Assembly: GCA_024398405.1 (NCBI GenBank)
Contig: JAKSJE010000002.1
Location: 2,474-66,473 of the forward strand
Reading direction: 5' to 3'
Source: Bacteroidaceae bacterium
Lineage (GTDB): Bacteria > Bacteroidota > Bacteroidia > Bacteroidales > Bacteroidaceae
DNA: 64,000 nt
Shown: piece by piece, positions 11,901 to 51,735 of the stretch
How positions within the stretch are numbered: position 1 is the first letter of the stretch
Layout of the letters: each line of letters opens with the position of its first letter
The notes under the pieces: model-generated
Seen by the model: only the letters and a program-made list of their open reading frames with translations
What the model was told of the DNA's origin: nothing
Databases searched by the model: none
Position numbers and translations under genes: made by a program

Positions 11901-14900
11901 CTTTCCGTAGATAAGTCCGAGGTTGATGCCGAGATTGCCGTATGCCTGAGCACCGAGAAGCACACCGAAATCCGTTTTGAAGGAGTTGAGTGCGGCATTG
12001 CGAGCCTCAGTTGCTTGCGACAGATTGTCGCTGATGTATCCATCACCGTGTTCGGCACCATCGAGGAAATCAGAGATTTTCTTAGGAATCGGAGGCAGTT
12101 GGCCATTGTCAGGGAGTTCGTTGCCGAAGCAGAGATAGCAGTTCGCACCAAGTTTGCAGTTGACGAGGTCGCCCTCCTTTCCGAAATCAATGAGTACGAC
12201 CGAGCATCGTTTGTCCTCAGCTGGTTCACCGAGGTAGAAGTGCCAGCGAGGAGATGGGTAATCCACACCGCCTGTCCTCCATGTCACCTTGACATCGAGT
12301 GTGACTGTGGCAGAGCAGGTAGCTGCCATCTTCTTCTGGTCCTCAGTCTTGGCGGCAGACTTGGCATCGTTCTCTTTCGGCTCATTTTTCGGAGCCTCGT
12401 CCTTCTTCGGTTCTTCAGCCTTGGCTCCTATCTTGCTGTCAAGTCCGGTCTCACAGCCCGTGATGATATTGAACTTGCCGCCTGAGATTTCATCCAACTG
12501 TTCCTTCGTACTGCCTAAGTCACTCGCGAAGTCACCTATATAGTCACTGGCATCGTAATCAATTTTGGCATCCGCGGTGATATTGAGTTGAAGGTATTTC
12601 TCCATAGGTGTGCATTCGTACACGAGGCTCATATCCGCATTGATAAGACCGCCCACGGCCTTGACATTACCGGTGAAGATGAATTGCGAGAGACATTTCT
12701 GTGTCTTGTTATAGACTACCGCCAATTCGAGTTCTCCGGTTGCCGCCTTCTCGTCAGGAGAGGCCATTTCCATAGAGACGGACATGCCGATAAGTCCTTT
12801 TTTGTTCCTGATGTCCGCAAGGACGAAATTACCATCCTTGTTCTTCCCGACAGGGGAGCAGTTGAAATAGAACCCTCCACCGAGTTTTGTAATCACCAGC
12901 GGACCGAGTTCTATCTTCGTACCTATCTTCAGGTTGAGATAGCCCCATGTGTAGTCATCCTCGTCGCTGTCTATGTCATAATATGCTCCCGATGCGTGAA
13001 GGGACATCAAGTTACCTGGTAGCGTGACATCCAAGGTCGCCTCGAAGCCCTTACCCTTCTCACTCTTCGCATCATTGCTCATGTATAGATGACCATCGAA
13101 TGTGATGCCTGAGAACGAGGCGTCCAGGGCAATGCTGTCAAGCCGTGCAGAGTCGAGTGAGCATTCTATGTTGGAAAGGTCGCTGAGGCTGAGGTTCTTT
13201 ATGGAGCCGAAGATGGTTACACCTGCCTCCGCCCCTAATTCTATGCCCGACACGACATTGACCCTGCCGCAGAGTCCGAGACCTATGACCAGACTCTCAT
13301 CCTTCGTGACTGAAGTGAAGTCATAGTTGACGAGTGAGAACTCGAACGGGCCGAGTTTCTTCGATGCCGAAGCCAATGACCAGGAGCCTGTATGGAAGTA
13401 GAACGTGGTGTCGGCCTTGTTCTCCGCTCCGTTTGTGAATTCCTTCCCACTGGTATATAGGCTGGCGATGGCTTTGTCCTCCTGAACCTTGCGAAGTGAA
13501 TCCGTATTTGCCTGGAAATCGACATACTTGCTCTTCCATGTCTTGCAGTTGGCTATGCGCATCCCTATGAAATGAATATCGGGCAGAGCGAGTTTAGTGC
13601 CGAGTTTTTCCTCAAGATAGTCCTCTGCTTCTGACTTCCGGCCTATCTCCATACGACCTCCGAGCATCAGTTCGCATCTGGTGACCATCTTGTTGGTCTC
13701 CGACTTCTTCTGCTTCGGGTCTTTCGGTTCTGACTCGAGCAGGAAATATGTCTGGTTGGCATCGAGTACAAGACGAGCGGCATAGAGATCCAGATTGAAG
13801 TCACCACTGAGCTGACGCGTGTTGAAGATAAACGCAAAGTTGTCTGTCTCTTTCTCCTTCTCGTCAATCTGGCGACGCACCTGACATTCATAGTCAAGGC
13901 GCGCCTTGCCGTTATCTTTGTCCTTCAGTAGCGGAACTCCCAAGTCGCCCTTGAGGTAGCAGTTGTCGAAGTTGTTCTGGACCACATTCAGGCTGACCTC
14001 CTTCACAGATACGCCGAACCCGCCGGCATAAGCGTCGAAGACGTTGTCGAACTTTGCATTCAACGTTACTCCTGACTTGTCAATCAGAAAGTCCTTGGCA
14101 GTAATGGCAAGTCTATCCTTGCTGTCGTCTGCCGTCGATGTCAGTCCTTCCGGCAACAACACTGACATGGTCTTGATGTAGAAGCCTTCCCAGCCGTTGT
14201 CACCATATCTGCCGAGATTCTCCTTACCTATGGATTCTTCTTTTTTGTAGTTCTTTGGCCATCTGAATCCGCTCATGGGCGAGGCATTCATGACTCGTGA
14301 ATGGTCATAGCACATCTTATCGACTACGAAGGTGAATCCTGGAAGTGAAGCAATCTCGAATGGTTCCATGCTCACTTCATCCACCATGAACTCATCCCAA
14401 CTCGCAATCTGTGTACGTATGGTAAGTGTCGGAAGTGAGTCCGTCACCTCCTTTGTGTCCATGTCATACTTCTTCAGTTTAGGTATCTTCATATCGACAT
14501 CGATACCCATCACCTCGAATTCATAGTTTTTCCAGCTGACGTAAGTCCCATCGGTAGGCTCCAGAAGGTCTTGAGGAGCTTTGAAAGTGCATTCGTAGCC
14601 TGAGCTCGGTTCGACGACGGTGAACTTATCCAGCAGTGCCAGCTGACCTGACTCCGGCAGAATGTGGTCTGGTGAGATACATAAACGCGGAGCGCCGAAG
14701 ACAAGTATGTCAGACGCCAGGTTCTCGCTCTCCGGCATGGTGAATTCGCCAAGCAGGTCCATGGTGGCGTATGTCGATGCGAACTCCATCTTCGTGATTT
14801 GGATATCAACAGGCAGTTCGCCTACGAGGCTCTCGACACCTTTTGGCATACACAAGGGCATGTAGATATCCGTATGTCCTGACTTTATCAGGTCCCAGAT

Positions 14901-23862: not shown

Positions 23863-26800
23863 TTATCTGCTGCGTGTCTTGAACGTCTCGGTGGTCTGGC
23901 CGCTGGTGACACTGACCATCACGACTCCCCATGCGGGGTCGAGCCGAAAGGAAGGGCGGTCGGTGGAGAGAAGGCACACACCTGTAGTGCTATAGACATT
24001 CACCTGTGTGGGGTTACCTGCTACTGTGATGAGTCCGTTGTCGTTCCTGATGGAGAACGCCTCGGCGACTGGCCGGCGGACAGAGGTGGTCTGCTGGCTC
24101 ATGTCGATGGTATATGACTCACCGGCGACGGCATCAATCACGATGCAGTCCTCATTGACATACTTGCACGCCACTTCCTCGCCTTTGGAGTTGACCACGC
24201 GCCGGTCGGCTATGCCCTTGTAGGTGACAGGGCAAGGAAGGGTTAGCACAGCCGTGATGGTGGCGACTGTGAGCCTGCCGTTCTCCCATGCCTGATCGAC
24301 CGTGAAGTTGCCCACTGCCTTCAGGCCCTTGATTTCCCCGTATGGCCAGACGGAAGGTACTGCCGGGAGCAGGCGGAGGGTGTCGGTGTGGCTCTGCAAC
24401 AGCATCTCAGCGATTCCGGAGCACACTCCGAAATTCCCGTCTATCTGGAAAGGCGAATGGGAGTCGTAGAGGTTGTAGTAAATACCTCCGGCGTACTGGT
24501 TGGTACCGTAGGAAGTGGAGTGTTTCAGTGCGTTGTGTATGATGATGTGCGCATGGTCGCCGTCGAGCGCGCGTGCCCAGAGGTTGGTCTTCCAGCCCAT
24601 GGACCATCCTGTGGCTTCGTCGCCACGGAGTTTGAGTGAGTTGACCGCCGGCACGAAATAAGGGCTTGACGGTGAGAGTGTGGACAGAGGATACAGAGCC
24701 ATCAGGTGTGACAGATGCCGGTGGGAAGCGTCGCCGCTGACATCGTAGGGTGAGTATTTCCACTCACGGAGCAGTAGGTCGCCTTTCTTGACGCCGTTGC
24801 GAGGATTCGTCCATGCGCCGTTGAGCGACGATGCGGTGTATTGCTCCGTATGCAGGCCCTGGTCGGTGTCCTGTATGTAGTCGTCGAGTTCAGCCAGTTC
24901 CTCGTCAGTGAGTCCGGCAGAGCTCTGCCCGAGGATGTCAACGGACTTGCGGACATTGGTCAGCAGGTCGTAGATGAGTTGCTGGGCGTGAGCCGTTCCG
25001 TCCTCAGTGGCATGGTCGTTCTGCTCCGGGGAATACTCGTCAGGGGCGACGAACGTGCCGTCGGGCGAGGACTTGTAGGCTGTGCCGCGGTAGTCCTTGT
25101 TGCTGACCTTGGAGTCATATCCGCGGTCACGGATCATTCGCTGCATCCAGAACTGCGCAGCCGACCACATCGCCGGGAACGCACGCCGCAGGTAGTCCTT
25201 GTCGCGGGTGAAGCGGTAGTGGTTGAAGAGGTGAGAGCAATACCATGCGTTGGCTACGAAGTAGTTGCTTCCCCATGTGCTCATACCTCCGTAGATGTTG
25301 CTCTCCGTGAACACCGTCCAGCCCTTCGACACCTTCGCGTAGCTCTTCGCCACCTTCTGCCAGTTGGCGCTCGCCGCATTGGTGATGATGTAGTTGAGGA
25401 ACGGCATGTGCATCTCGCTGAGGTTGGTCACCTCTGACGGCCAGTAGTTCATCTGGACGTTGATATTGGTGTGGATGTCGGAGTTCCACGGTGCGCGGCT
25501 GAGGTTGTTCCATATGCCCTGCAGGTTGCTCGGGACGTCAACGCCGCGGCTTGAGCTGATCTCGAGATAGCGGCCGTAGGAGAAGTAGAGCTGCTCGAGG
25601 AAGAGGACGAACGGCTCGGTCCCCTTCACGTTCTTGGACTTGTCGTTGTAGTAGTCCACGAGTGCGTCCGTAGGCAATGACGTGGGAGCCTCAGCCCCGG
25701 CGAGCTGGAGGCTCACGCGCCCCATCAGGCTACGGAAGTCGGCGACATGCTCGGAGTACACCTCGTCGAAGCCTTTGGCGGCTGTTGACTTGACCAGGTC
25801 GAGAACCGCGGTGCGGAGCTCGGCTGCGGTTCCTGATGACCGCGAGGCGACGGAGCCGTCGAAGTTGGTACGGCCGGTGAGGTATATGACCACCTCAGAC
25901 GCGTTGTCAACCACGAGGCCGTCATCGGCCTTCTCGACTGTGGAGCCCTCGCCGACGGGGACGACCTTCATGCGAGTGTTGTACTCCACGGTGGAGAGGC
26001 TCCCGAGGAACGTGGCGTAAGCGTCACCGGTCTTGCTGACAGAATAGGACAGCCCGCGGGCGTCAATCTCCTCACCCATCTGGTAACTCACCTTCAGGTG
26101 CAGTTTGTCCTTGCCGTCGGCCTTGTAGCGGGCGACTATCATCTGGGCGGGATACGAGGAGAAGTAGAGACGGGAGTATCTCGTGCCACCGTCAGGGCTT
26201 GTGTAGCTCACGCCGGCGGTGGCATTCTCGAGGTCGAGGTAGCGCACATAGTCCTTCGCGGACTTTGACTCTGTATAGCCGAACACATCGGAGAGGTCCT
26301 CCACGATGACTGAGCCGAAGTTCTTGTACTGCCCGTAGCCTCCCAAGTCGTTCGGGCCACCGGTCCAGAGGGTCTTCTCGTTGAACTGTATCTCGTCCTT
26401 ATGGACTCCGCCGAAGAGGCTCGCGCCCAGCTGGCCGTTTCCGATGGGCAGCGAGTATTCCATCCAGATATTGTTGACACCCGTAAGGGTCGCAGGCCGG
26501 TCATACCAAAGGGTCAGCTGGTGCTCCGGACTGAAAGAGGAAGCGCCGGCAACCTTGAAGTCGGGGTACTCGATGTCAGACGGGTCAATGATGACCACAG
26601 GGTTGTTGACGTCGCCCTTGTTCCAAAGGCCGAGTTCCTTGCCGACGCCCGTACCTCCGAACTGGTTGACGTAGGACTTGGAGTCTGAAGCGCCGAGCCA
26701 CTTTATCTCCCACGATGTCTTGTAGGAGGAGTTGGTTGACTGTTCCAGTTTCCATCCGCTCGCATCCTCGGAGACGGAGGTCTGCAGCCGGGAGCCGTTG

Positions 26801-27063
26801 TAGGTGAGGTACTCACCGTCTTTGTTGCGGATCTGGCAACTGAGAGCGCTGCCCGAGAAGCACCACAACTGGGCGGCGTCATCGCTGTTGAGCGACACCG
26901 TCTGCACGTTGGAGCCCGTGCCGGTCCGCGCGACAGTGAGCTTGCTGTTTGAGAACTGGATGACATAAGGGGTAACGCCATCGAACTTAGGTGAGACCTG
27001 AGCGTTGATGAAAGCGATGCAAGTCTGCAATGAGAGGATTGCGATCAATAGACTACGTTTCAT
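23863..27063 (-). CDS. GH95 alpha-L-fucosidase/alpha-L-galactosidase, full length with T9SS C-terminal domain (copy 1)
   Basis: 1,066-aa ORF with signal MKRSLLIAILSLQTCIAFINAQ and a ~160-aa N-terminal lectin-like module. The GH95 N-terminal signature is present (TLWYDRPA..WMEYSLPIGNGQLGASLFGG..EIQFNEKTLWTGGP). The C-terminal ~65 aa (..ITVAGNPTQVNVYSTTGVCLL..GVVMVSVTSGQTTETFKT) resembles a T9SS CTD. Confidence 0.85.
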   Translation of the reverse strand: MKRSLLIAILSLQTCIAFINAQVSPKFDGVTPYVIQFSNSKLTVARTGTGSNVQTVSLNSDDAAQLWCFSGSALSCQIRNKDGEYLTYNGSRLQTSVSEDASGWKLEQSTNSSYKTSWEIKWLGASDSKSYVNQFGGTGVGKELGLWNKGDVNNPVVIIDPSDIEYPDFKVAGASSFSPEHQLTLWYDRPATLTGVNNIWMEYSLPIGNGQLGASLFGGVHKDEIQFNEKTLWTGGPNDLGGYGQYKNFGSVIVEDLSDVFGYTESKSAKDYVRYLDLENATAGVSYTSPDGGTRYSRLYFSSYPAQMIVARYKADGKDKLHLKVSYQMGEEIDARGLSYSVSKTGDAYATFLGSLSTVEYNTRMKVVPVGEGSTVEKADDGLVVDNASEVVIYLTGRTNFDGSVASRSSGTAAELRTAVLDLVKSTAAKGFDEVYSEHVADFRSLMGRVSLQLAGAEAPTSLPTDALVDYYNDKSKNVKGTEPFVLFLEQLYFSYGRYLEISSSRGVDVPSNLQGIWNNLSRAPWNSDIHTNINVQMNYWPSEVTNLSEMHMPFLNYIITNAASANWQKVAKSYAKVSKGWTVFTESNIYGGMSTWGSNYFVANAWYCSHLFNHYRFTRDKDYLRRAFPAMWSAAQFWMQRMIRDRGYDSKVSNKDYRGTAYKSSPDGTFVAPDEYSPEQNDHATEDGTAHAQQLIYDLLTNVRKSVDILGQSSAGLTDEELAELDDYIQDTDQGLHTEQYTASSLNGAWTNPRNGVKKGDLLLREWKYSPYDVSGDASHRHLSHLMALYPLSTLSPSSPYFVPAVNSLKLRGDEATGWSMGWKTNLWARALDGDHAHIIIHNALKHSTSYGTNQYAGGIYYNLYDSHSPFQIDGNFGVCSGIAEMLLQSHTDTLRLLPAVPSVWPYGEIKGLKAVGNFTVDQAWENGRLTVATITAVLTLPCPVTYKGIADRRVVNSKGEEVACKYVNEDCIVIDAVAGESYTIDMSQQTTSVRRPVAEAFSIRNDNGLITVAGNPTQVNVYSTTGVCLLSTDRPSFRLDPAWGVVMVSVTSGQTTETFKTRSR

Positions 27064-27163: not shown

Positions 27164-30100
27164 TTATGGACATATTGTGATGGGTTCGTCATCGTTCCTG
27201 ATGGAGAGCGCCTCGGCGACTGGCCGGCGGACAGAGGTGGTCTGCTGGCTCATGTCGATGGTATATGACTCACCGGCGACGGCATCAATCACGATGCAGT
27301 CCTCATTGACATACTTGCACGCCACTTCCTCGCCTTTGGAGTTGACCACGCGCCGGTCGGCTATGCCCTTGTAGGTGACAGGGCAAGGAAGGGTTAGCAC
27401 AGCCGTGATGGTGGCGACTGTGAGCCTGCCGTTCTCCCATGCCTGATCGACCGTGAAGTTGCCCACTGCCTTCAGGCCCTTGATTTCCCCGTATGGCCAG
27501 ACGGAAGGTACTGCCGGGAGCAGGCGGAGGGTGTCGGTGTGGCTCTGCAACAGCATCTCAGCGATTCCGGAGCACACTCCGAAATTCCCGTCTATCTGGA
27601 AAGGCGAATGGGAGTCGTAGAGGTTGTAGTAAATACCTCCGGCGTACTGGTTGGTACCGTAGGAAGTGGAGTGTTTCAGTGCGTTGTGTATGATGATGTG
27701 CGCATGGTCGCCGTCGAGCGCGCGTGCCCAGAGGTTGGTCTTCCAGCCCATGGACCATCCTGTGGCTTCGTCGCCACGGAGTTTGAGTGAGTTGACCGCC
27801 GGCACGAAATAAGGGCTTGACGGTGAGAGTGTGGACAGAGGATACAGAGCCATCAGGTGTGACAGATGCCGGTGGGAAGCGTCGCCGCTGACATCGTAGG
27901 GTGAGTATTTCCACTCACGGAGCAGTAGGTCGCCTTTCTTGACGCCGTTGCGAGGATTCGTCCATGCGCCGTTGAGCGACGATGCGGTGTATTGCTCCGT
28001 ATGCAGGCCCTGGTCGGTGTCCTGTATGTAGTCGTCGAGTTCAGCCAGTTCCTCGTCAGTGAGTCCGGCAGAGCTCTGCCCGAGGATGTCAACGGACTTG
28101 CGGACATTGGTCAGCAGGTCGTAGATGAGTTGCTGGGCGTGAGCCGTTCCGTCCTCAGTGGCATGGTCGTTCTGCTCCGGGGAATACTCGTCAGGGGCGA
28201 CGAACGTGCCGTCGGGCGAGGACTTGTAGGCTGTGCCGCGGTAGTCCTTGTTGCTGACCTTGGAGTCATATCCGCGGTCACGGATCATTCGCTGCATCCA
28301 GAACTGCGCAGCCGACCACATCGCCGGGAACGCACGCCGCAGGTAGTCCTTGTCGCGGGTGAAGCGGTAGTGGTTGAAGAGGTGAGAGCAATACCATGCG
28401 TTGGCTACGAAGTAGTTGCTTCCCCATGTGCTCATACCTCCGTAGATGTTGCTCTCCGTGAACACCGTCCAGCCCTTCGACACCTTCGCGTAGCTCTTCG
28501 CCACCTTCTGCCAGTTGGCGCTCGCCGCATTGGTGATGATGTAGTTGAGGAACGGCATGTGCATCTCGCTGAGGTTGGTCACCTCTGACGGCCAGTAGTT
28601 CATCTGGACGTTGATATTGGTGTGGATGTCGGAGTTCCACGGTGCGCGGCTGAGGTTGTTCCATATGCCCTGCAGGTTGCTCGGGACGTCAACGCCGCGG
28701 CTTGAGCTGATCTCGAGATAGCGGCCGTAGGAGAAGTAGAGCTGCTCGAGGAAGAGGACGAACGGCTCGGTCCCCTTCACGTTCTTGGACTTGTCGTTGT
28801 AGTAGTCCACGAGTGCGTCCGTAGGCAATGACGTGGGAGCCTCAGCCCCGGCGAGCTGGAGGCTCACGCGCCCCATCAGGCTACGGAAGTCGGCGACATG
28901 CTCGGAGTACACCTCGTCGAAGCCTTTGGCGGCTGTTGACTTGACCAGGTCGAGAACCGCGGTGCGGAGCTCGGCTGCGGTTCCTGATGACCGCGAGGCG
29001 ACGGAGCCGTCGAAGTTGGTACGGCCGGTGAGGTATATGACCACCTCAGACGCGTTGTCAACCACGAGGCCGTCATCGGCCTTCTCGACTGTGGAGCCCT
29101 CGCCGACGGGGACGACCTTCATGCGAGTGTTGTACTCCACGGTGGAGAGGCTCCCGAGGAACGTGGCGTAAGCGTCACCGGTCTTGCTGACAGAATAGGA
29201 CAGCCCGCGGGCGTCAATCTCCTCACCCATCTGGTAACTCACCTTCAGGTGCAGTTTGTCCTTGCCGTCGGCCTTGTAGCGGGCGACTATCATCTGGGCG
29301 GGATACGAGGAGAAGTAGAGACGGGAGTATCTCGTGCCACCGTCAGGGCTTGTGTAGCTCACGCCGGCGGTGGCATTCTCGAGGTCGAGGTAGCGCACAT
29401 AGTCCTTCGCGGACTTTGACTCTGTATAGCCGAACACATCGGAGAGGTCCTCCACGATGACTGAGCCGAAGTTCTTGTACTGCCCGTAGCCTCCCAAGTC
29501 GTTCGGGCCACCGGTCCAGAGGGTCTTCTCGTTGAACTGTATCTCGTCCTTATGGACTCCGCCGAAGAGGCTCGCGCCCAGCTGGCCGTTTCCGATGGGC
29601 AGCGAGTATTCCATCCAGATATTGTTGACACCCGTAAGGGTCGCAGGCCGGTCATACCAAAGGGTCAGCTGGTGCTCCGGACTGAAAGAGGAAGCGCCGG
29701 CAACCTTGAAGTCGGGGTACTCGATGTCAGACGGGTCAATGATGACCACAGGGTTGTTGACGTCGCCCTTGTTCCAAAGGCCGAGTTCCTTGCCGACGCC
29801 CGTACCTCCGAACTGGTTGACGTAGGACTTGGAGTCTGAAGCGCCGAGCCACTTTATCTCCCACGATGTCTTGTAGGAGGAGTTGGTTGACTGTTCCAGT
29901 TTCCATCCGCTCGCATCCTCGGAGACGGAGGTCTGCAGCCGGGAGCCGTTGTAGGTGAGGTACTCACCGTCTTTGTTGCGGATCTGGCAACTGAGAGCGC
30001 TGCCCGAGAAGCACCACAACTGGGCGGCGTCATCGCTGTTGAGCGACACCGTCTGCACGTTGGAGCCCGTGCCGGTCCGCGCGACAGTGAGCTTGCTGTT

Positions 30101-30214
30101 TGAGAACTGGATGACATAAGGGGTAACGCCATCGAACTTAGGTGAGACCTGAGCGTTGATGAAAGCGATGCAAGTCTGCAATGAGAGGATTGCGATCAAT
30201 AGACTACGTTTCAT
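27164..30214 (-). CDS. GH95 alpha-L-fucosidase/alpha-L-galactosidase lacking the T9SS CTD (copy 2)
   Basis: 1,016-aa ORF, identical to copy 1 over the first ~1,000 residues. It diverges at ..RRPVAEALSIRNDDEPITICP* where copy 1 continues into the CTD. Its start overlaps the GT2 stop (ATGA). Confidence 0.85.
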   Translation of the reverse strand: MKRSLLIAILSLQTCIAFINAQVSPKFDGVTPYVIQFSNSKLTVARTGTGSNVQTVSLNSDDAAQLWCFSGSALSCQIRNKDGEYLTYNGSRLQTSVSEDASGWKLEQSTNSSYKTSWEIKWLGASDSKSYVNQFGGTGVGKELGLWNKGDVNNPVVIIDPSDIEYPDFKVAGASSFSPEHQLTLWYDRPATLTGVNNIWMEYSLPIGNGQLGASLFGGVHKDEIQFNEKTLWTGGPNDLGGYGQYKNFGSVIVEDLSDVFGYTESKSAKDYVRYLDLENATAGVSYTSPDGGTRYSRLYFSSYPAQMIVARYKADGKDKLHLKVSYQMGEEIDARGLSYSVSKTGDAYATFLGSLSTVEYNTRMKVVPVGEGSTVEKADDGLVVDNASEVVIYLTGRTNFDGSVASRSSGTAAELRTAVLDLVKSTAAKGFDEVYSEHVADFRSLMGRVSLQLAGAEAPTSLPTDALVDYYNDKSKNVKGTEPFVLFLEQLYFSYGRYLEISSSRGVDVPSNLQGIWNNLSRAPWNSDIHTNINVQMNYWPSEVTNLSEMHMPFLNYIITNAASANWQKVAKSYAKVSKGWTVFTESNIYGGMSTWGSNYFVANAWYCSHLFNHYRFTRDKDYLRRAFPAMWSAAQFWMQRMIRDRGYDSKVSNKDYRGTAYKSSPDGTFVAPDEYSPEQNDHATEDGTAHAQQLIYDLLTNVRKSVDILGQSSAGLTDEELAELDDYIQDTDQGLHTEQYTASSLNGAWTNPRNGVKKGDLLLREWKYSPYDVSGDASHRHLSHLMALYPLSTLSPSSPYFVPAVNSLKLRGDEATGWSMGWKTNLWARALDGDHAHIIIHNALKHSTSYGTNQYAGGIYYNLYDSHSPFQIDGNFGVCSGIAEMLLQSHTDTLRLLPAVPSVWPYGEIKGLKAVGNFTVDQAWENGRLTVATITAVLTLPCPVTYKGIADRRVVNSKGEEVACKYVNEDCIVIDAVAGESYTIDMSQQTTSVRRPVAEALSIRNDDEPITICP

Positions 30215-43857: not shown

Positions 43858-45584
43858 GTTTCCTACCGACCACACGCAAAGAGATGGAGCGCCTCGGATG
43901 GGATCAGGCCGATATCATCATATTCTCCGGCGACGCCTATGTTGACCATCCGTCCTTTGCCACAGCAGTGATAGGTCGCACCCTCGAGGCTGAAGGCTAC
44001 CGGGTGGCAGTCGTTCCGCAGCCCGACTGGCATGGCGACTTCCGCGACTTCCGCAAACTCGGCAAGCCACGGCTGTTCTTCGCCGTCTCGCCCGGATGCA
44101 TGGACTCCATGGTCAACAAATACACTGCCAACCGGCGTTTGCGTTCCGAAGACGCCTATACCCCCGACGGGCGTTTCGACAAGCGGCCCGAATACCCGAC
44201 CATAGTATATACCCATATCCTCAAGGAACTATACCCCGGCATACCTGTCATCATCGGAGGCATCGAGGCCTCCATGCGCCGACTCACACATTACGACTAC
44301 TGGCAGGACAGACTGCGTCCGTCCATTCTCGTTGACAGCCATGCTGACATCCTCATCTATGGCATGGGCGAGCAACCCATCACCGAGATAGCCCGACTGT
44401 ACCACGAGAGTCCGTCCGACCTCACCGCCCGGCTCCGCTCAGTGCCGCAGACAGCCCACCTGGCTCCCGCCGGCCTGACCCTGAGCCATGAAGCCGTCAT
44501 GCTCCATAGCCATGAGGAATGCGTCGCGAGCAAGCGTTCACAGGCAGAGAACTTCCGGCTGATAGAGGAGCAGTCAAACCGTCTCGACGCCAAGACGCTC
44601 ATCCAGCAGGTCGGCTCACACCTCGTTGTCGTCAACCCACCATTCCCTCCTATGTCGCAAGGTGAGCTCGACCGTAGTTTCGACTTGCCTTACACGCGTC
44701 TGCCCCACCCCCGGTACAAGGGGAAGACCATCCCCGCATACGAGATGATCAAGTTCTCAGTCAATCTACACAGAGGCTGCTTCGGCGGCTGCTCGTTCTG
44801 CACCATATCCGCCCACCAAGGCAAGTTCGTATGCAGCCGGAGCAAGGACAGCATCATGCGCGAGGTCAGGAAAGTCATTGCCATGCCTGACTTCAAAGGC
44901 TATATCAGCGACCTCGGAGGACCCAGTGCCAATATGTACTCCATGTGCGGGAAGGACCGGGGACTGTGTGCCATATGCCGTCGCCCGTCATGCATATTCC
45001 CTAACGTCTGCAAGAACCTCAACAACGACCACGCGCCGCTTCTCGACATCTATCGCAGTGTTGACTCCCTGCCGGGAATAAAGAAGAGCTTCATAGGCAG
45101 CGGAGTACGCTACGACCTTCTCATGAGTGACCGTGAAAGCGGCATGCGCTATGCCCGCGAGCTGATCGTCAATCATGTCAGCGGCCGTCTGAAGGTGGCG
45201 CCCGAACATACTGAGGACAATGTTGTACGAATGATGCGCAAACCTCCGTTCCGGCTCTTTTACGACTTCAAGCGCATCTTCGACGACATCTGCCGTCAGA
45301 ACCGCCTCCGCCAGCAGATAATTCCTTATTTCATAAGCGCACACCCTGGCTGCAAGGAGGAAGACATGAGCAGGTTGGCCGAGAAGACCCGGAAACTGGG
45401 TTTCCGTCTCGAACAGGTCCAGGAATTCACCCCTACGCCCATGACACTCAGCACCGAGATGTACTACACAGGTCTTGACCCCTATACACTCGAGCCAGTG
45501 TTCTCAGCCCATTCCGACAAGGAGAAGCAAGCGCAGCACAAGCACTTCTTCTGGTACAAGCAAAACGACTCCGGCCGGCACTGA
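43854..45584 (+). CDS. ygiQ: YgiQ-family (UPF0313) radical SAM protein
   Basis: 576-aa ORF with the typical N-terminus MSFLPTTRKEMERLGWDQ.DIIIFSGDAYVDHPSF. The radical SAM cluster motif is CFGGCSFC. Its ATG overlaps the upstream stop (ATGA). Confidence 0.85.
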   Translation: MSFLPTTRKEMERLGWDQADIIIFSGDAYVDHPSFATAVIGRTLEAEGYRVAVVPQPDWHGDFRDFRKLGKPRLFFAVSPGCMDSMVNKYTANRRLRSEDAYTPDGRFDKRPEYPTIVYTHILKELYPGIPVIIGGIEASMRRLTHYDYWQDRLRPSILVDSHADILIYGMGEQPITEIARLYHESPSDLTARLRSVPQTAHLAPAGLTLSHEAVMLHSHEECVASKRSQAENFRLIEEQSNRLDAKTLIQQVGSHLVVVNPPFPPMSQGELDRSFDLPYTRLPHPRYKGKTIPAYEMIKFSVNLHRGCFGGCSFCTISAHQGKFVCSRSKDSIMREVRKVIAMPDFKGYISDLGGPSANMYSMCGKDRGLCAICRRPSCIFPNVCKNLNNDHAPLLDIYRSVDSLPGIKKSFIGSGVRYDLLMSDRESGMRYARELIVNHVSGRLKVAPEHTEDNVVRMMRKPPFRLFYDFKRIFDDICRQNRLRQQIIPYFISAHPGCKEEDMSRLAEKTRKLGFRLEQVQEFTPTPMTLSTEMYYTGLDPYTLEPVFSAHSDKEKQAQHKHFFWYKQNDSGRH

Positions 45585-45648
45585 CCGCGATTCCCACTTA
45601 GCGGCCGGCACCCAGTTCCAGTCACACCACACCCACAGAGGAAACATC

Positions 45649-46188
45649 ATGTACAAAGAGATCATCGACAAATACTACCCAGCCACGTCCCCACTCCGCG
45701 ACATCCTCGTCACACACTCACGGAGTGTGGCAGACAAGGCGCTTTCAATCGCCAGATGCCATCCTGAATGGAATCTCGACCTTCAGTTCATCGAAGAAGC
45801 AGCCATGCTCCACGACATCGGGATATTCCGCTGCGATGCGGCCGGCATTCAGTGTCTCGGCACCGAGCCATACATCCGCCATGGCGTCATCGGGGCCGAC
45901 ATCCTCCGTTCCGAAGGCTACCCCCGTCACGCCAGGGTATGTGAACGGCATACAGGAGCCGGACTCACACGCCTCGACATCGAGGAACAAGACCTGCCGC
46001 TTCCTCATAGGGACCTCATTCCCGAGACACACGAGGAGCAGATCATCTGCTTTGCCGACAAGTTCTTCTCGAAGACACGGCTCACAGAGGAGAAGACACT
46101 CGAGCAGGCTCTACACAGCCTGTCCCGTTTCGGGCCACGCACTACCAAACAATTCCTGACATGGACAGAACTCTTCGCTGTCAGATAA
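45649..46188 (+). CDS. HD-domain phosphohydrolase
   Basis: Corresponds to ORF 45475..46188. I prefer the ATG at 45649 (MYKEIIDKYY..). The HD motif is AAMLHDIGIF, followed by ..RHGVIGADIL..ERHTGAGL. Confidence 0.75.
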   Translation: MYKEIIDKYYPATSPLRDILVTHSRSVADKALSIARCHPEWNLDLQFIEEAAMLHDIGIFRCDAAGIQCLGTEPYIRHGVIGADILRSEGYPRHARVCERHTGAGLTRLDIEEQDLPLPHRDLIPETHEEQIICFADKFFSKTRLTEEKTLEQALHSLSRFGPRTTKQFLTWTELFAVR

Positions 46189-46307
46189 GCCCAGACCGGT
46201 CATTGGCGAATCGCCACATGCGATATGTCCGGAAAGTCCTCGCCCTACTTCCCGGTTGTTCCTCATGCCCCAACGACACCTGACGACAGGCAGGAACCTC
46301 GGTGTAA

Positions 46308-46988
46308 TCACCTACACGACAACCAGATAAGGCACTGAAGGACTTGGGGGACATTCTTGATCGTGCGACTTACGACGACGAGGCTTTCCCGTCACTACTC
46401 GATGAGAATGGCAATAGAAAACCGTTCGAACGCTTCTTGAACGACGTTCGGAAAATAGACCGCACATACAACGAGAACTATCTGCGCTCTGAATACAACT
46501 TCGTGCAGGCTTCTGCAGAAATGGCGGCAAAGTGGGAACAGTTCCAGCAGGACGGAGACCGCTACTATCTCCAGTACCGCACACAGCATGACGATAAGGT
46601 GCGACCAGAACATGCAGCCCTCGATTGTGTCACACTACCTATCGATGACCCTTTCTGGGAAGAGTACTATCCTCCTAACGGATGGAACTGCCGCTGCACC
46701 GTCGTACAGGTGCGAAAGTCAAAGTACCAACCGACACCACACGACCAGGCCATGGCTCTCGGCGAACAGGCTACAGGCAAGGACACAAAGGGCATCTTCC
46801 ATTTCAATCCTGGTATCCAGCAGAAGACAGTCCCCGACTACAACCCTTACACCATACGCCGATGCCGTGACTGCGACCTGGGCAAGGAGAAACTCGCCTT
46901 CGTTCCAGATAACGAACTCTGCGCTGCATGTAAACTCATACATCAATTAGAGATAAAGAAATATTGTTGTCCGCTAAACGGTTCTTAG
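46308..46988 (+). pseudogene. phage MuF (SPP1 gp7 / Mu F) head-morphogenesis-domain gene fragment, 5'-truncated and 3'-interrupted by a MITE
   Basis: The MuF core motif is present: DDKVRPEHAALDCVTLPIDDPFWEEYYPPNGWNCRCTV. The frame is open from 46308 with no ATG (the ORF track uses TTG at 46344). The last 9 codons and the stop are read from the MITE terminal repeat. Confidence 0.75.
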
Positions 46989-47228
46989 ACCTTGTTTTTA
47001 CTATTATTAGACAGGTACAAGCCCTATAATCAAGTAAATACAACGGCTGTCCGCTAAACATTTTATTGTTAGTAGCGTTATACGGATTGATAAGATGCCC
47101 AATTTGCCTGATTACGACTCAATAGACGGTTTTTCCCCTTTTAGACGTGTGGATATACATGAATATAGTCGGCTGTCCGACAAATCAACGAATCAAATTT
47201 TGGGTGTGAATGTTTAGCGGACAACAAT
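46963..47228. mobile_element. 266-bp MITE with 17-bp perfect terminal inverted repeats and an 11-bp target-site duplication
   Basis: The left TIR is ATTGTTGTCCGCTAAAC (46963-46979). The right TIR is GTTTAGCGGACAACAAT (47212-47228). The TSD GATAAAGAAAT lies at 46952-46962 and 47229-47239. An internal subterminal copy TGTCCGCTAAACATT starts at 47048. The element has no coding capacity. Confidence 0.8.
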
Positions 47229-47646
47229 GATAAAGAAATTACCTATTCATGCTTCGCGCTCACAAGTCATACGTGCACAAAAGGATTTAGTTGATTGGTA
47301 CAAAAAGGAAATGCCTTCAGTAATGGTTGGAAAATGCAAGGCAAGACGTTTCTACACAAATACAAAAGATGGGTTAGAGGTGATTATCAACAAAAATTTC
47401 TATCAAGAAACAATAAATAAATACCAAGATGACATTCTTTACCCTCTCAAGTTGGCTTACGCAAGGAAGGCTATCGACTTAATCAAAGAAGCCGAATTGG
47501 TAAATCCTGATGAACCAAGTATAGACCACCCGAATGAAATTTTCAAGGTTTATAAATATATTGATGACTGCTATGAGGTTGAAATGAAGTTGAGATGCAA
47601 TAGGGATGGTAATTACTTGCACATAATCAGAATTTACAAAAAATAA
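47227..47646 (+). CDS. AT-rich 139-aa ORF; formerly the C-terminal module of the MuF-domain gene (possible toxin domain)
   Basis: The ATG is formed from the last two bases of the MITE TIR plus the first base of the TSD. Removing the MITE plus one TSD copy fuses it in frame to the MuF ORF (..HQLEIKK|LPIHASR..). GC is visibly ~35%, versus ~52% upstream. Confidence 0.6.
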   Translation: MIKKLPIHASRSQVIRAQKDLVDWYKKEMPSVMVGKCKARRFYTNTKDGLEVIINKNFYQETINKYQDDILYPLKLAYARKAIDLIKEAELVNPDEPSIDHPNEIFKVYKYIDDCYEVEMKLRCNRDGNYLHIIRIYKK

Positions 47647-47744
47647 AAACGCCTTTTCCGTCGCCTCCCTCGTGTGTCTCATGCTTGCATGGACGAAGGG
47701 TAACTTGAAAAGTCGCTTTTATGACCGCAAAGATACAAAAAATT

Positions 47745-47776
47745 CCGTTACTTACAACAAAGTAGCGGTTTTTTTT
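47745..47776 (+). terminator. rho-independent terminator-like hairpin (copy 1 of a 55-bp repeat at 47723-47777)
   Basis: CCGTTACTT-loop-AAGTAGCGG followed by T8. Confidence 0.55.
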
Positions 47777-47896
47777 GCTTTTTTAATAAAAATTTAGCAG
47801 TTCTACGCTATCGTAAAATAGAAAAACCCCTAAGGAACGGCCTTCCATACCGGCATTGTTCCAAAGAGGTTTCCGACCGCAAAATTACAAAAAATT

Positions 47897-47929
47897 CCGT
47901 TACTTCCAAAAAAAGTAGCGGTTTTTTTT
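47897..47929 (+). terminator. rho-independent terminator-like hairpin (copy 2 of the 55-bp repeat at 47875-47930)
   Basis: CCGTTACTT-loop-AAGTAGCGG followed by T8. The 55-bp repeat units are ~85% identical. Confidence 0.55.
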
Positions 47930-48009
47930 GTTTTTACCCTAAAAAAAGCGCCTTGATCCTCACGGACGGCGACACCCAGGGGTAAAAAAACTAATTGAAA
48001 AAAATCATT

Positions 48010-48465
48010 CTAATTTCTATTCTGGTAGGCAGAATTTATTTTTTTAATCACTGCACATTGATAGACCTCGATGTTCTCCAGCAAGTCCTCGTGGTTGTGG
48101 TTAGTCTGGCTCTCTACCAAGTCCAGACCGATATACCGCTCACCACGTTTGCCGGCAAGCAGCTCATGAATGCACTCTAATAGGTCGAACACCTTCAGAC
48201 CGTCTTCCTGGCTCTCGCTGCCATCACTCGTATTCCCGACCCAGTCTGTCACGACATGAAGCTTGATGAACGGCTCCGCCCTGTAGTCACGGCCTGGTAC
48301 CAATGACTCCCATTGGATTGGGCAGAACTCTACGAACACTGCTGGGCGTTCCCAGCCCTCCTCCTGCTCCAGGAACTCCACGTTATGGTTCCACAGGTTC
48401 CCCGCTCCACACAGAGCGCATGACCACGTCTGCCCTTCCGCATCGGTACGTCCGAGAGAGCGCAT
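48010..48465 (-). CDS. hypothetical protein (possible phage structural remnant)
   Basis: 151-aa ORF. Its first ~10 codons lie inside the GC-rich repeat element, so the start is doubtful. No motif recognised. The context is phage-like. Confidence 0.4.
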   Translation of the reverse strand: MRSLGRTDAEGQTWSCALCGAGNLWNHNVEFLEQEEGWERPAVFVEFCPIQWESLVPGRDYRAEPFIKLHVVTDWVGNTSDGSESQEDGLKVFDLLECIHELLAGKRGERYIGLDLVESQTNHNHEDLLENIEVYQCAVIKKINSAYQNRN

Positions 48466-48625
48466 GACCAGGCCTGAGAGAGCGCATGACCAGGCCTGGG
48501 AGAACGCTCACCGAGGCTCCGGCATGCGCTCTCCCAGGCCTCGGTGAGCGAAGTCGCCGACGTGGTCAAGCGTTGTCTCCGCCGCTTCCATGCGATTGCT
48601 CCGCGACGCCTGAGCGTTGTCTGTC
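48450..48625 (-). repeat. GC-rich structured intergenic repeat element, copy B (inverted relative to copy A; two 22-bp tandem units)
   Basis: The reverse complement aligns with 23486-23700. For example, GACCACGTCGGCGACTTCGC..GAGGCCTGGGAGAGCGCATG..GAGCGTTCTCCCAGG..GGTCATGCGCTCTCTCAG is shared. Confidence 0.8.
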
Positions 48626-48692
48626 AGGGACGGTAACGAAAGCGCGCCACTGACGGGTTTCTCAGGGGCTGGACGGCGACCCCATAAAGCCG

Positions 48693-48735
48693 CAGACCGG
48701 TCATTAGCGCATGACTGCCTAATGACCGGTCTGGG
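48693..48735 (-). terminator. 14-bp perfect stem-loop (CAGACCGGTCATTA / TAATGACCGGTCTG) downstream of the 982-aa gene
   Basis: The inverted repeat was read directly and has a 12-nt loop. It lies 52 nt past the stop at 48787 on the minus strand. Confidence 0.5.
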
Positions 48736-48786
48736 ATGGACGGAGGCTCATGGCCTCGTCAATCGTCGGGGGTTACCCGTTGTCCG

Positions 48787-51735
48787 TCACTTACGGATTT
48801 GCTTGCGACCGTTGGATATCACTATGCCACGGAAGCTGTCAGACACCTTCTGTCCCGCAAGGTTGAACATATTGCCGCTGCTGAGAGGCTGTTCGCCACC
48901 GACCGACTCAATCGCGTCTGGTACATCAAGGTTGATGCATTCGAGACGGAAGTTGTCGAGTTTGAACCAACCGAACGAGGCTTGTTCTCTGTTCTCGCCT
49001 GTCGCCGGGTCGATGCGGTCAGTGCGGAAACCAATCCTGACTGGTTCGTTTCCTTCGGTGCCGAAGATGACGCTCGTTGTGTAAGGTATGCTTGAGTAGC
49101 TGTAGCTCGCGTCACGGTAGTTGTTGGCGAAGGTGAGGTACTTCACGTCCTTCTCGCCGTTCCAGATGTCATGCTGCCGTGCAGCCTGAGCGTCTTCAGG
49201 CAGATAGGTCTCATAGTATTCCTCACTGCCGAACATGGTCACGAATCCGTCGGCGAACAAGCGCTGTGTGGAGAGGTTGAACCCGGCCCAGTCGTTCTGT
49301 ACGATGACATCGGCCGACAGTTTGTAAGTACCTGCTGGAAGACCGACCGTCTGCGAGATTTCCACTACTGGAACCGCGCCGCTCCATATACCCCAGAGAT
49401 GGTCGCCGTCGGTATATTGGTGAGTCCATTCATTGCCTTCCTCATCGTATGTGTCCGTCAGTGCGTCCCCGTGGTTGATGGCGCACCAGCCCTGAGTCTG
49501 TGCCTGCACTTCCGCCTGAGTGGCGCAAGCCACACCATTGAGCACGAGGTTCCATCCTGCCGGAGCGGCTTCAACGCCACCGCTCTCGTCCTTACCCTGT
49601 GCAGAGGTGTCCTCGAAACTTGGGTTCTTGATGCGGTTGGTGATGTCCTTGCCTGGCTCCACGACGTTGGATTCGATGCAAGCCTGCAGAGCGTCCTCGA
49701 GTCGCTTGATGGCCTCGGCACACTGTTCGGTGGTGTAAACGCCGCTTGCGTAGCCATCCTCCACTTCGTATATTACGTCTGCGAATTCATCGGCTCCCGG
49801 GTAGTCCTGATAGAGTTCGAACTGCTCCCACGCTCTGGCTATTGCCTCGCTGAGTTTGTTGTATGCCTTCACGTTCTCGCTGACTACAACTATGAGTTCC
49901 CTGACTTCGAAGATGGCTTTGTTGATGGTCTCGATATCCGACTCGGTCGAAATCGCCTTGTATGCCTCCATCTTCTCATCGAGTGAGGCTCTGAGATCCG
50001 CGTTCATGAACTCTGTGTATTCGTAGAGTTCACGGAGTTCCGTGAAGAAGTGCTGGAATATGCCGAATGCATCCTCTGGAATGTAGCCGAGATACTGCAG
50101 CCGGAAGTTGTCGAGTTTGAACCATCCGTCACCGCCGGCGGAGTTCAACGAAGTGCGGTTAGCGGCTGCCACATTGCCGTCGGTGCGGAGTCCGAGGGTG
50201 AGGGTGCCGTCATAGACGTATGCCCTGACCTGCATAGGGAAGAGGGTGCGGTCGGTAACGTAGTATTGGTCGTTGCCCTGGAAACCATATACTTCGGTCT
50301 TGTCGAGTTCGTCGCTGTTGTATTCCTCAGCGAAGCCGAAATATGTGGAGTTCAGATTGGCGAAGATTCTCTGTGTCGTCATGCGGCTGCCACTACCGTT
50401 CGCGCCTGCCATGAGTCCTGCCGAGACGATGTAGGATCCGTTCTCGAGCCCGTCGATCTTCTGGCTGATCTCATAACGTGGGATGCTTCCGTTCCAGATG
50501 CCGAAGATATAGTTTCCGGCCATTGCCTCACCGTCGGCATCGTTGTTGATTCCGTGCCATGCAGTGAGTCCGGCGTTCTTGGCGTCGTCGGCTGTGACAA
50601 TCTGGTTGCCGTTGACATAGACATTCCATCCTGTAGGAGCGCCCTCCACACCAGTGGTCTGGTTGCCGTTCTGAGATGAGAGGTCTTCGAAGCTTGGGTT
50701 CTGGATGGCTGCGGTGAAGTCGCCGGTACCTTCCCTGTAGTTCTTCAGTGCCGCGTTGAGAGCCTTCAGTGCCGACTCCGTTCCCACGAGGTCAGTCACG
50801 CTGTCGAATGCCTTCTTCGCCGCGTCGGTAGCGGACTTGAGCACAGCGTCTTCCGTCACATTGGCGGCGATGGCCTCAAGTATGGTGTTGTAGAGATTCA
50901 CCTTTGCGTTCACGATGGAAATGATCGTTGGATTGTCGAGAGTATAGTCGTACTCTTCGCTCTCATATATGGCAGTGACCGCTTCGAGAGTCGCCGCGAA
51001 ACCATCATGGAAGTCAGGGTTGATGTTCTCGTTGTTTACGAAATTGTTCTCGAATGCAGTGATGGAGGTATATGCGGCAGCCCTGCCCATGTACTCCTGG
51101 TAGTGCTCCACATTCACGAAATTCCAGTGGCATGTGGTGGAGTCGGCGAGGAAGTAGTTGCCTTCATCATCCATGAGACGCTCTCCTGTCTCCGGGTCGG
51201 TGAGGAAACCATGGTAGATGTCGCCACTCTGATAGACGTTGCTGTCATAGAAAGGGCAGATAGGATATGTGTTGCCCGCATTCATGAGGACATCGAAGCC
51301 GATGGTGCCAGCCCAGTTTCCTGCGTCGGCGATGAGACGATAGACACCGTCACTCACATTGACCACCTTGAACCGAGGTGTTGTTTCAGTGTCAGGGCAC
51401 TCACCTATTACCTTGCAGAAAAGATTGACGTAGTTTGGCACTATGACCAGATACTTAGGGTCGCCCTCCACGTTCTGCTCGATGAACGACCAAGTGCCGT
51501 CGTCCTGCTTCACGGACTTGAAGGTGACGAAATTCTCTGATGTACCGAACTCATAACAGATGGCACCATCCCAGGAAGTATGCCCGAGCCACATGCTACG
51601 GGTGTTTACGTTCTGGAGCAGATAGGTCGCACCGTCTTCCAGGTTGTCACCTGCAGGTGGGACGATGGCCGATGCGGAGACGGCAGTCGCGAACATGCAG
51701 ACAGCCATCAGGATTTTGAAATAACGTTTTCTCAT
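48787..51735 (-). CDS. T9SS-sorted secreted protein with two CBM-like (galactose-binding-like) repeats
   Basis: 982-aa ORF with signal MRKRYFKILMAVCMFATAVSASA. It has two paralogous ~200-aa modules, starting IQNPSFEDLSS..GWNVY.. and IKNPSFEDTSA..GWNLV... Each module ends in GWFKLDNFRL. The C-terminus ..FNLAGQKVSDSFRGIVISNGRKQIRK resembles a type-A CTD. Confidence 0.8.
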   Translation of the reverse strand: MRKRYFKILMAVCMFATAVSASAIVPPAGDNLEDGATYLLQNVNTRSMWLGHTSWDGAICYEFGTSENFVTFKSVKQDDGTWSFIEQNVEGDPKYLVIVPNYVNLFCKVIGECPDTETTPRFKVVNVSDGVYRLIADAGNWAGTIGFDVLMNAGNTYPICPFYDSNVYQSGDIYHGFLTDPETGERLMDDEGNYFLADSTTCHWNFVNVEHYQEYMGRAAAYTSITAFENNFVNNENINPDFHDGFAATLEAVTAIYESEEYDYTLDNPTIISIVNAKVNLYNTILEAIAANVTEDAVLKSATDAAKKAFDSVTDLVGTESALKALNAALKNYREGTGDFTAAIQNPSFEDLSSQNGNQTTGVEGAPTGWNVYVNGNQIVTADDAKNAGLTAWHGINNDADGEAMAGNYIFGIWNGSIPRYEISQKIDGLENGSYIVSAGLMAGANGSGSRMTTQRIFANLNSTYFGFAEEYNSDELDKTEVYGFQGNDQYYVTDRTLFPMQVRAYVYDGTLTLGLRTDGNVAAANRTSLNSAGGDGWFKLDNFRLQYLGYIPEDAFGIFQHFFTELRELYEYTEFMNADLRASLDEKMEAYKAISTESDIETINKAIFEVRELIVVVSENVKAYNKLSEAIARAWEQFELYQDYPGADEFADVIYEVEDGYASGVYTTEQCAEAIKRLEDALQACIESNVVEPGKDITNRIKNPSFEDTSAQGKDESGGVEAAPAGWNLVLNGVACATQAEVQAQTQGWCAINHGDALTDTYDEEGNEWTHQYTDGDHLWGIWSGAVPVVEISQTVGLPAGTYKLSADVIVQNDWAGFNLSTQRLFADGFVTMFGSEEYYETYLPEDAQAARQHDIWNGEKDVKYLTFANNYRDASYSYSSIPYTTSVIFGTEGNEPVRIGFRTDRIDPATGENREQASFGWFKLDNFRLECINLDVPDAIESVGGEQPLSSGNMFNLAGQKVSDSFRGIVISNGRKQIRK

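Follow-up and report, generated by a model that had tools for sequence, protein, structure and literature searches.

A short element with IS4-family termini, very probably a MITE, in the remnant of a Mu-like head-morphogenesis gene

A divided Mu F gene and the element between its parts

The window, by which we mean the whole 64,000-nucleotide stretch of Bacteroidaceae DNA that was analysed, contains two open reading frames (ORFs) on the plus strand that correspond to the two parts of one Mu F (SPP1 gp7-like) head-morphogenesis gene. Between them lies a short segment with inverted termini, flanked on both sides by a direct repeat. The features of the locus are listed below by their positions in the window.

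46344 to 46988, plus strand: upstream ORF as called mechanically, 214 aa, TTG start, ending in YCCPLNGS and a stop, which are read from the element
46378 to 46962, plus strand: first part of the divided head-morphogenesis gene, of the Mu F (SPP1 gp7-like) type (PF04233, TIGR01641), 95.3% DNA identity to locus L119
46952 to 46962, no strand: left copy of the 11-bp repeat GATAAAGAAAT; the true duplication is probably ATAAAGAAA (46953-46961), with T46962 as the element's terminal base
46963 to 47228, minus strand: putative MITE, 266 bp long as bounded by its 17-bp termini and 268 bp (46962-47229) if the 18-bp termini of the family are taken
46963 to 46979, plus strand: left inverted terminus ATTGTTGTCCGCTAAAC, the transposase-distal end, the same as the termini of L004, L046, L106 and L112
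47017 to 47062, minus strand: 5' coding remnant of a transposase, ATG TTT AGC GGA CAG CCG.. = MFSGQPLYLLDY..., containing the motif at 47043-47059
47170 to 47184, plus strand: second, degenerate copy (CGGCTGTCCGACAAA) of the GGACAGCC/terminus-core motif
47212 to 47228, minus strand: right inverted terminus, the transposase-proximal end, from the repeat search
47227 to 47646, plus strand: downstream ORF, 139 aa, C-terminal domain of the split gene, with an apparently fortuitous ATG
47229 to 47239, no strand: right copy of the 11-bp repeat, with G47229 where 16 of 16 other elements have A

Direct reading and a repeat search agree on a segment of 266 bp and 38% GC bounded by 17-bp inverted termini, 46963-46979 being ATTGTTGTCCGCTAAAC and 47212-47228 its exact reverse complement (17/17). 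The longest reading frames inside it reach 40-41 aa and none is a transposase ORF, in keeping with the perfect termini around a non-coding segment described in the initial annotation. Allowing up to three mismatches, we count three occurrences of the 17-mer in the window, where shuffled sequence would give 0.12; the third is an internal copy at 47043-47059 that matches at 14 of 17 positions. We assign the element to the minus strand, since this is the strand that encodes the transposase-gene remnant. Neither transposase similarity nor a second copy of the MITE was found elsewhere within the 64-kb window. Folding of the element as a single strand gives z = -4.2, a value that reflects mostly the pairing of the termini with each other and is uninformative. 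A reading as an intron or riboswitch was also considered and dropped, as an Rfam scan of 45000-49000 at E<=1 gave only sub-threshold noise.

Taking out the element together with one copy of the repeat joins 46962 to 47240 in frame, as had been predicted, and restores an open frame of 341 codons (..CKLIHQLEIKK/LPIHASRSQV..). The reconstructed protein matches Phage_Mu_F (PF04233, E=1.6e-16, 61.5 bits versus a threshold of 29.6) and TIGR01641 (52.8 bits versus 39.65). When it was searched against a large protein collection, 5727 matches were returned, the top ~100 of which were considered: these are single proteins of ~399 aa, with 97% query coverage and at most 77% identity, and the few that are named are minor capsid or head-morphogenesis proteins of Prevotella or Muribaculaceae. 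The junction ..CAACKLIHQLEIKK/LPIHASRSQV.. aligns without gaps with ..CAACRLIHQMEKDKEPSPSTRSRV.. in the homologues. On both flanks, the window is collinear with the genes for two of them, P0001 and P0002 (loci L122 and L123); the unaligned gap between the flanking matches measures 33 nt in L122 versus 310 nt in the window, and the surplus DNA of the window relative to L122 and L123 is 277 bp, that is, 266 + 11. Every homologue has both parts of the gene in a single ORF, even where the C-terminus is a different one, and the nearest uninterrupted homologue has 77% identity. The earlier proposal that an insertion has split one gene is thus upheld by a restored frame that aligns gaplessly with ~100 single-ORF homologues and by exactly 277 extra bp; homologues that are naturally two genes, or that naturally contain the segment, were not encountered among these ~100, which are all single uninterrupted ORFs. 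For the exact empty site, a 24-mer covering the junction and right flank had 0 matches in JGI metagenomes and IMG/VR. The window's own ORFs are otherwise present in two short contigs only, both from run SRR17543913 and both breaking inside the MITE.

The element also shapes the ends of the two ORFs. The mechanically called upstream ORF has no in-frame ATG before residue 60, and its tail is element-derived, consisting of 8 residues (YCCPLNGS, the first base of the Y codon coming from the repeat) followed by TAG. The initial annotation was right that the upstream ORF borrows its end and its stop from the element, but the borrowed residues number 8 and not 9, and the TAG at 46986-88 lies just internal to the 17-bp terminus and not within it. 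The downstream ATG was found where it had been placed, at 47227-47229, where the final A and T of the element are followed by G47229 of the repeat.

The gene itself is incomplete. The first ~67 N-terminal codons are missing in all three frames, and homology begins at EAFPSLL, at about codon 68 of the homologues. The window matches L119 (8203-8758) with 95.3% DNA identity from 46378 to 46933, where the identity stops. The homologue P0107, whose Mu F part is 96% identical, is encoded behind Portal_Mu, and the Mu-like prophage in which its gene lies further contains terminase, Gam and AAA_22 genes; the gene for P0002 has the same prophage setting, after Portal_Mu. The prophage of P0107 matches the window in three places only: 46378-46933 (95.3%), 47874-48398 (82.6%) and 47723-47793. 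The head-morphogenesis module is incomplete in the window, with the neighbouring phage genes all absent except one 151-aa ORF, and the flanking genes are chromosomal, encoding a YgiQ-type radical SAM protein, an HD protein and a ROK protein. Judged by these sequence comparisons, the split gene is a 5'-truncated piece of a ~2.5-kb decayed Mu-like prophage fragment that lies among housekeeping genes, and it is left with no plausible start codon. Unrelated C-terminal domains follow the same Mu F domain in P0106-P0110, and the GC content of the C-terminal module is low in all homologues (0.35-0.41 versus 0.53-0.56). The drop in GC at ~46900 had been a candidate mark of the insertion; because the module is low in GC in all homologues, this drop is a property of the gene and not an effect of the insertion.

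Several repeats were observed in and around the prophage fragment. An imperfect direct repeat of 20-27 bp, at 46182-46211 and 48683-48735 (..ATAAGCC-CAGACCGGTCATTGGCGAAT / ..ATAAAGCCGCAGACCGGTCATTAGCGCAT), flanks the whole ~2.5-kb fragment and has no other occurrence in the window. Its right copy forms one arm of a perfect 15-bp hairpin (48693-48707 / 48719-48733) just 3' of a 982-aa gene. This flanking repeat has the look of an attachment or terminator sequence that has been duplicated; such a feature would be odd for a Mu-like (transposing) phage. An AT-rich segment of 66 nt is present twice, at 47718-47783 and 47870-47935 (77% identity, 152 bp apart, ending in AAAGTAGCGGTTTTTTTTG); since the intact prophage has a single counterpart of both copies, 3' of its Mu F gene (L119 9309-9380), the segment is duplicated in the window. 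At the right edge of the fragment, in a region (48413-48546) that overlaps the start of the 151-aa ORF, AGAGCGCATGACC(A/-)GGCCTG occurs three times, at 48413, 48457 and 48479, and a long GC-rich palindrome comes next; the palindrome at 48464-48546 gives weak microRNA-like Rfam noise on both strands. Elsewhere, the window holds a 3604-aa ORF on the minus strand (5970-16784) and two adjacent minus-strand ORFs of ~1000 aa (23863-27063 / 27164-30214) that look like tandem paralogues, the sign of this being identical weak tblastn matches at 25015 and 28166.

The IS4-family partner and the origin of the element

Contigs from one genome per species, 596 Gb in total, were scanned for exact matches to the 17-mer, and at least 114 stretches were found. 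Among the matches listed, nearly all are in gut and rumen metagenome-assembled genomes (MAGs) assigned to Prevotellaceae or other Bacteroidales. Of the 83 in this listing, at least 30 have a contig end no more than ~170 nt away, as is usual for dispersed repeats. About a dozen of those listed fall in unrelated phyla, which is consistent with the ~70 chance 17-mer matches expected in 596 Gb. Complete elements of 1521-1528 bp with the 17-mer at both ends are present at L004 (1341-2868), L046, L106 and L112. The element at L004 has a single 420-aa ORF that scores 188.2 bits with the IS4 model NF033592 (cut-off 115) and combines a DUF4372 domain with DDE_Tnp_1 (PF01609, 94.9 bits). Its transposase contains the Y(2)R(3)E(6)K motif (YRARWAIELLFKQIK) that defines the IS4 family (PMC2266710). 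Related transposases, 45-99% identical, are encoded at about 20 further loci. The insertion sequence (IS) family to which these elements belong is widespread in Prevotellaceae and other Bacteroidales. The initial annotation had guessed at an IS4-like transposase and had suggested a search for the autonomous IS; such an IS was found at L004, L046, L106 and L112, and the 1.52-kb elements with identical 17-bp termini bear out the guess, as they encode an IS4-family transposase. A search of the PLSDB plasmids with the MITE and the full IS as queries gave no match, and a scan of IMG/VR for the 17-mer gave three single ends only. Copies of the IS with ~76-82% transposase identity were also seen in a Sphaerochaetaceae locus (L025) and in an 'archaeon' MAG from horse faeces (L019), and reflect either horizontal transfer or mis-binned Bacteroidales contigs.

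Comparison with these relatives bears on where the element ends and on how much of the flanking repeat is target duplication. In the window, the repeat GATAAAGAAAT is identical in 11 of 11 positions (46952-46962 and 47229-47239) and abuts both termini, an arrangement with a chance of ~2e-7. Sixteen other elements were examined, and in each of them the 17-mer has T on its outer side at the left end and A at the right end. Outside these T...A bases a 9-bp flanking repeat is found, perfect (9/9) in L039, L083 and L084 and with 8/9 matches in L004, L024 and L097. Because the T and A are constant outside the 17-mer and the repeat lies beyond them, the terminus is 18 bp family-wide (T...A; 5'-TATTG...) and the duplication 9 bp. 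The window has T on the left, as in the family, and G instead of A on the right, which would be either a mutated terminus or the sign of an atypical duplication. Its 11-bp repeat is probably a 9-bp duplication, ATAAAGAAA, of a 268-bp element plus two chance matches (1/16), and a genuine 10- or 11-bp duplication is possible. What had been read as an 11-bp target duplication is therefore real as a repeat, identical throughout and abutting the termini, but the duplication of the family is 9 bp and the extra 2 bases are probably coincident. The reconstructed empty site is identical whichever length holds. IS4-family target duplications measure 8-13 bp, about one helical turn, and the ends of the family are 5'-NA (PMC2266710 Table 1); the 9-bp duplication of the partner family lies within this range, and its ends are likewise 5'-NA.

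The interior of the element suggests how it arose. The motif GGACAGCC encodes the G-Q-P of F[LT]GQP at the N-terminus of the transposase, and its distance from the transposase-proximal end is 174-177 nt in four full-length IS copies; in L108, which is more divergent, it is 130 nt. The MITE has this motif at nt 178 of its minus strand, where it has an ATG ahead of it and reads MFSGQPLYLLDY; the transposase N-termini compared with it are HFLGQPILNQLL in L004 and YFTGQPVYSQV in L108. Because the 5' motif of the transposase is kept at a matching distance from the proximal end, the MITE is an internal-deletion derivative of the IS, made up of ~215 nt from the transposase-proximal end and ~50 nt from the distal one. 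The motif also accounts for the subterminal copies of the terminus core that the initial annotation had reported. Both are present (47043-47059 and 47170-47184), but they are copies of the conserved coding motif of the transposase, which itself resembles the terminus. As a side observation, all transposases of this IS family have terminus-like first codons (F-[LT]-G-Q-P), as at L004 2683-2702, L108 3780-3800 and window 47043-47062 (TTTnnCGGACAGCCG versus TTTAGCGGACAACAAT), which may be a candidate internal transposase-binding site.

Short relatives of the element are found elsewhere. The same termini enclose elements of 89, 267-318 and ~395 bp that lack a transposase and have unrelated interiors. 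L015 and L026, which belong to the same MAG and have different flanks, share 90% identity with the right 130 nt of the MITE, and L105, from another MAG, shares 84% identity with its left 94 nt, including the region of the transposase remnant. All three copies are partial, as the contig or block ends inside them. The suggested search for further copies of the element itself thus yielded three partial ones, at different sites in two other genomes. A conserved 22-mer internal to the MITE had 0 matches in JGI metagenomes and IMG/VR. In a Prevotellaceae MAG, we also observed four tandem copies of the terminal repeat with adjacent sequence, ~55 bp apart (L096 3533-3716); here one end of a related MITE has expanded in the manner of a minisatellite.

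Insertion into the linker, alternatives and consequences

The anatomy of the element, the uninterrupted homologues, the IS with identical termini and the further MITE copies carry the interpretation that we favour. We are highly confident that the segment is a MITE of an IS4-family IS, presumably mobilised in trans, that has inserted into the linker of the remnant of a Mu-like head-morphogenesis gene. We propose that the event would have proceeded as follows: (i) Formation of the element. Internal deletion of an IS4-family IS would have produced a non-autonomous MITE of 266-268 bp. (ii) Mobilisation. A transposase encoded elsewhere would have moved the MITE in trans by cut-and-paste. (iii) Choice of target. 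The insertion would have taken place where an AT-rich linker joins the Mu F domain to the C-terminal LPD3-like domain, and an AT-rich C-terminal module suits the AT-rich target preference of the element. (iv) Repair. Repair of the staggered target cut would have left a direct repeat, with a length of 9 bp by the rule of the family and of 11 bp as read here. (v) Effect on the frames. The upstream frame would since have stopped 8 codons into the element, and the in-frame ATG before the C-terminal domain would have arisen by chance. The 5' truncation of the gene may have come before the insertion or after it.

It is conceivable that a full-length IS inserted at this site and decayed in place to 266 bp, leaving a dead stump that was never mobile as a MITE; a recognisable 5' remnant of the transposase in the element would agree with such a history, as would the lack of another copy in the window. 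Yet the same short architecture is found at different sites (the left 94 nt in L105 and the right 130 nt in L015 and L026), and both 17-bp termini are still perfect, which makes decay in place very unlikely.

Invertons bounded by inverted repeats are common in Bacteroidales, and ~230 bp between perfect 17-bp inverted repeats directly 5' of an ORF resemble such an inverton in size and shape, in this case one that would switch expression of the downstream ORF. The repeats are, however, the termini of an IS4-family IS, a target duplication flanks the segment, and the segment breaks an otherwise continuous ORF. A good Bacteroides-type promoter is also lacking inside the element, where our search found one 7/8 match to the -7 box (TAnnTTTG), at the right end, and no -33 element, and a recombinase gene was not found nearby. 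We therefore regard a switch of this kind as highly improbable.

That the two ORFs are naturally separate genes, with repeats that are coincidental or a regulatory intergenic feature, could appeal to the modular C-terminus seen in P0106-P0110, where different domains follow the same Mu F domain, but it is hardly credible and effectively already refuted by the fusion of the parts in every homologue, other C-termini included, and by extra DNA that equals the element plus one repeat exactly (277 bp), the chance of the abutting 11/11 repeat being ~2e-7.

If the segment is a MITE insertion, as we favour, the question arises of what it did to the gene. The C-terminal third of the reconstructed protein matches LPD3 (PF18798) below the cut-off (E=0.004, 17.9 bits versus a gathering score of 27). 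The product of the downstream ORF is confidently modelled as a compact alpha/beta domain (pLDDT 90, pTM 0.82), whose fold matches in BFVD are domains within phage proteins of 1000-1385 aa (TMq 0.62, probability 1.0); sequence and fold searches against the PDB gave nothing significant. The predicted fold is consistent with an LPD-type (LPD3-like) domain, as in phage polyvalent proteins. We consider it very unlikely that the MITE freed this C-terminal polyvalent-protein domain as a host protein (exaptation), or that GGACAGCC, of which the MITE has two copies, serves as an internal transposase-binding site for autoregulation or titration. Were exaptation to hold, the cut exactly at the linker and the in-frame ATG, perhaps with a weak outward promoter at 47195-47202, would make the insertion non-neutral. 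Since ~67 first codons are gone and the gene lies in a dead prophage fragment, it was probably already non-functional, and it is very probably a pseudogene, either from before the insertion or since. As the host gene is a 5'-truncated remnant, the insertion most likely had no phenotypic consequence.

The locus provides a clean case of a MITE insertion in a coding sequence of an uncultured Prevotella-like gut or rumen bacterium, for which an IS4-family partner and a deletion origin have been identified. For annotation, the two ORFs become one pseudogene and a mobile element, and the element explains why assemblies of such genomes break at MITE sequence. The insertion is an ordinary, well-understood kind of event, and what is known of transposition, phages and Bacteroidales biology is unchanged by it.

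Comparison with known systems

Bacterial IS-derived MITEs have been catalogued across prokaryotes and phages, and this catalogue already reports MITEs of Prevotella genomes and Prevotella phages in bulk (PMC11602168); MITEs of Porphyromonas gingivalis have also been described (PMC4596501). Like bacterial MITEs, the window element is short, lacks a transposase, has inverted termini in common with an autonomous IS, is flanked by a target duplication and has several copies at different sites. It lies inside a coding sequence, unlike most MITEs, which are intergenic (PMC11602168), and, unlike the bacterial MITEs compared, it has retained the transposase gene's first codons.

The partner IS resembles the IS4 family as described by De Palmenaer et al. 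2008 (PMC2266710) in its length of 1.52 kb, its single DDE ORF and its YREK motif, and also in its 17-18-bp termini with 5'-NA ends, its 9-bp duplication and its AT-rich target preference. By the descriptions in PMC2266710, its ends are nearest to those of subgroup IS4 ('-AATR', with the first base relaxed), and by Table 1 of that paper its duplication length is nearest to IS4Sa/IS10 (8-10 and 9 bp). It differs from the family in the N-terminal DUF4372 of its transposase and in ends that read TATTG instead of NAATR.

The split gene is like those of the Mu gpF / SPP1 gp7 proteins (PF04233 + PF18798 LPD3) in having a Mu F domain, in that its relatives follow Portal_Mu, and in its swappable low-GC C-terminal module, the fold of which recurs within giant phage proteins. 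It is unlike them in that ~67 N-terminal codons and the neighbouring morphogenesis genes are missing, and in that its LPD3 match falls below threshold.
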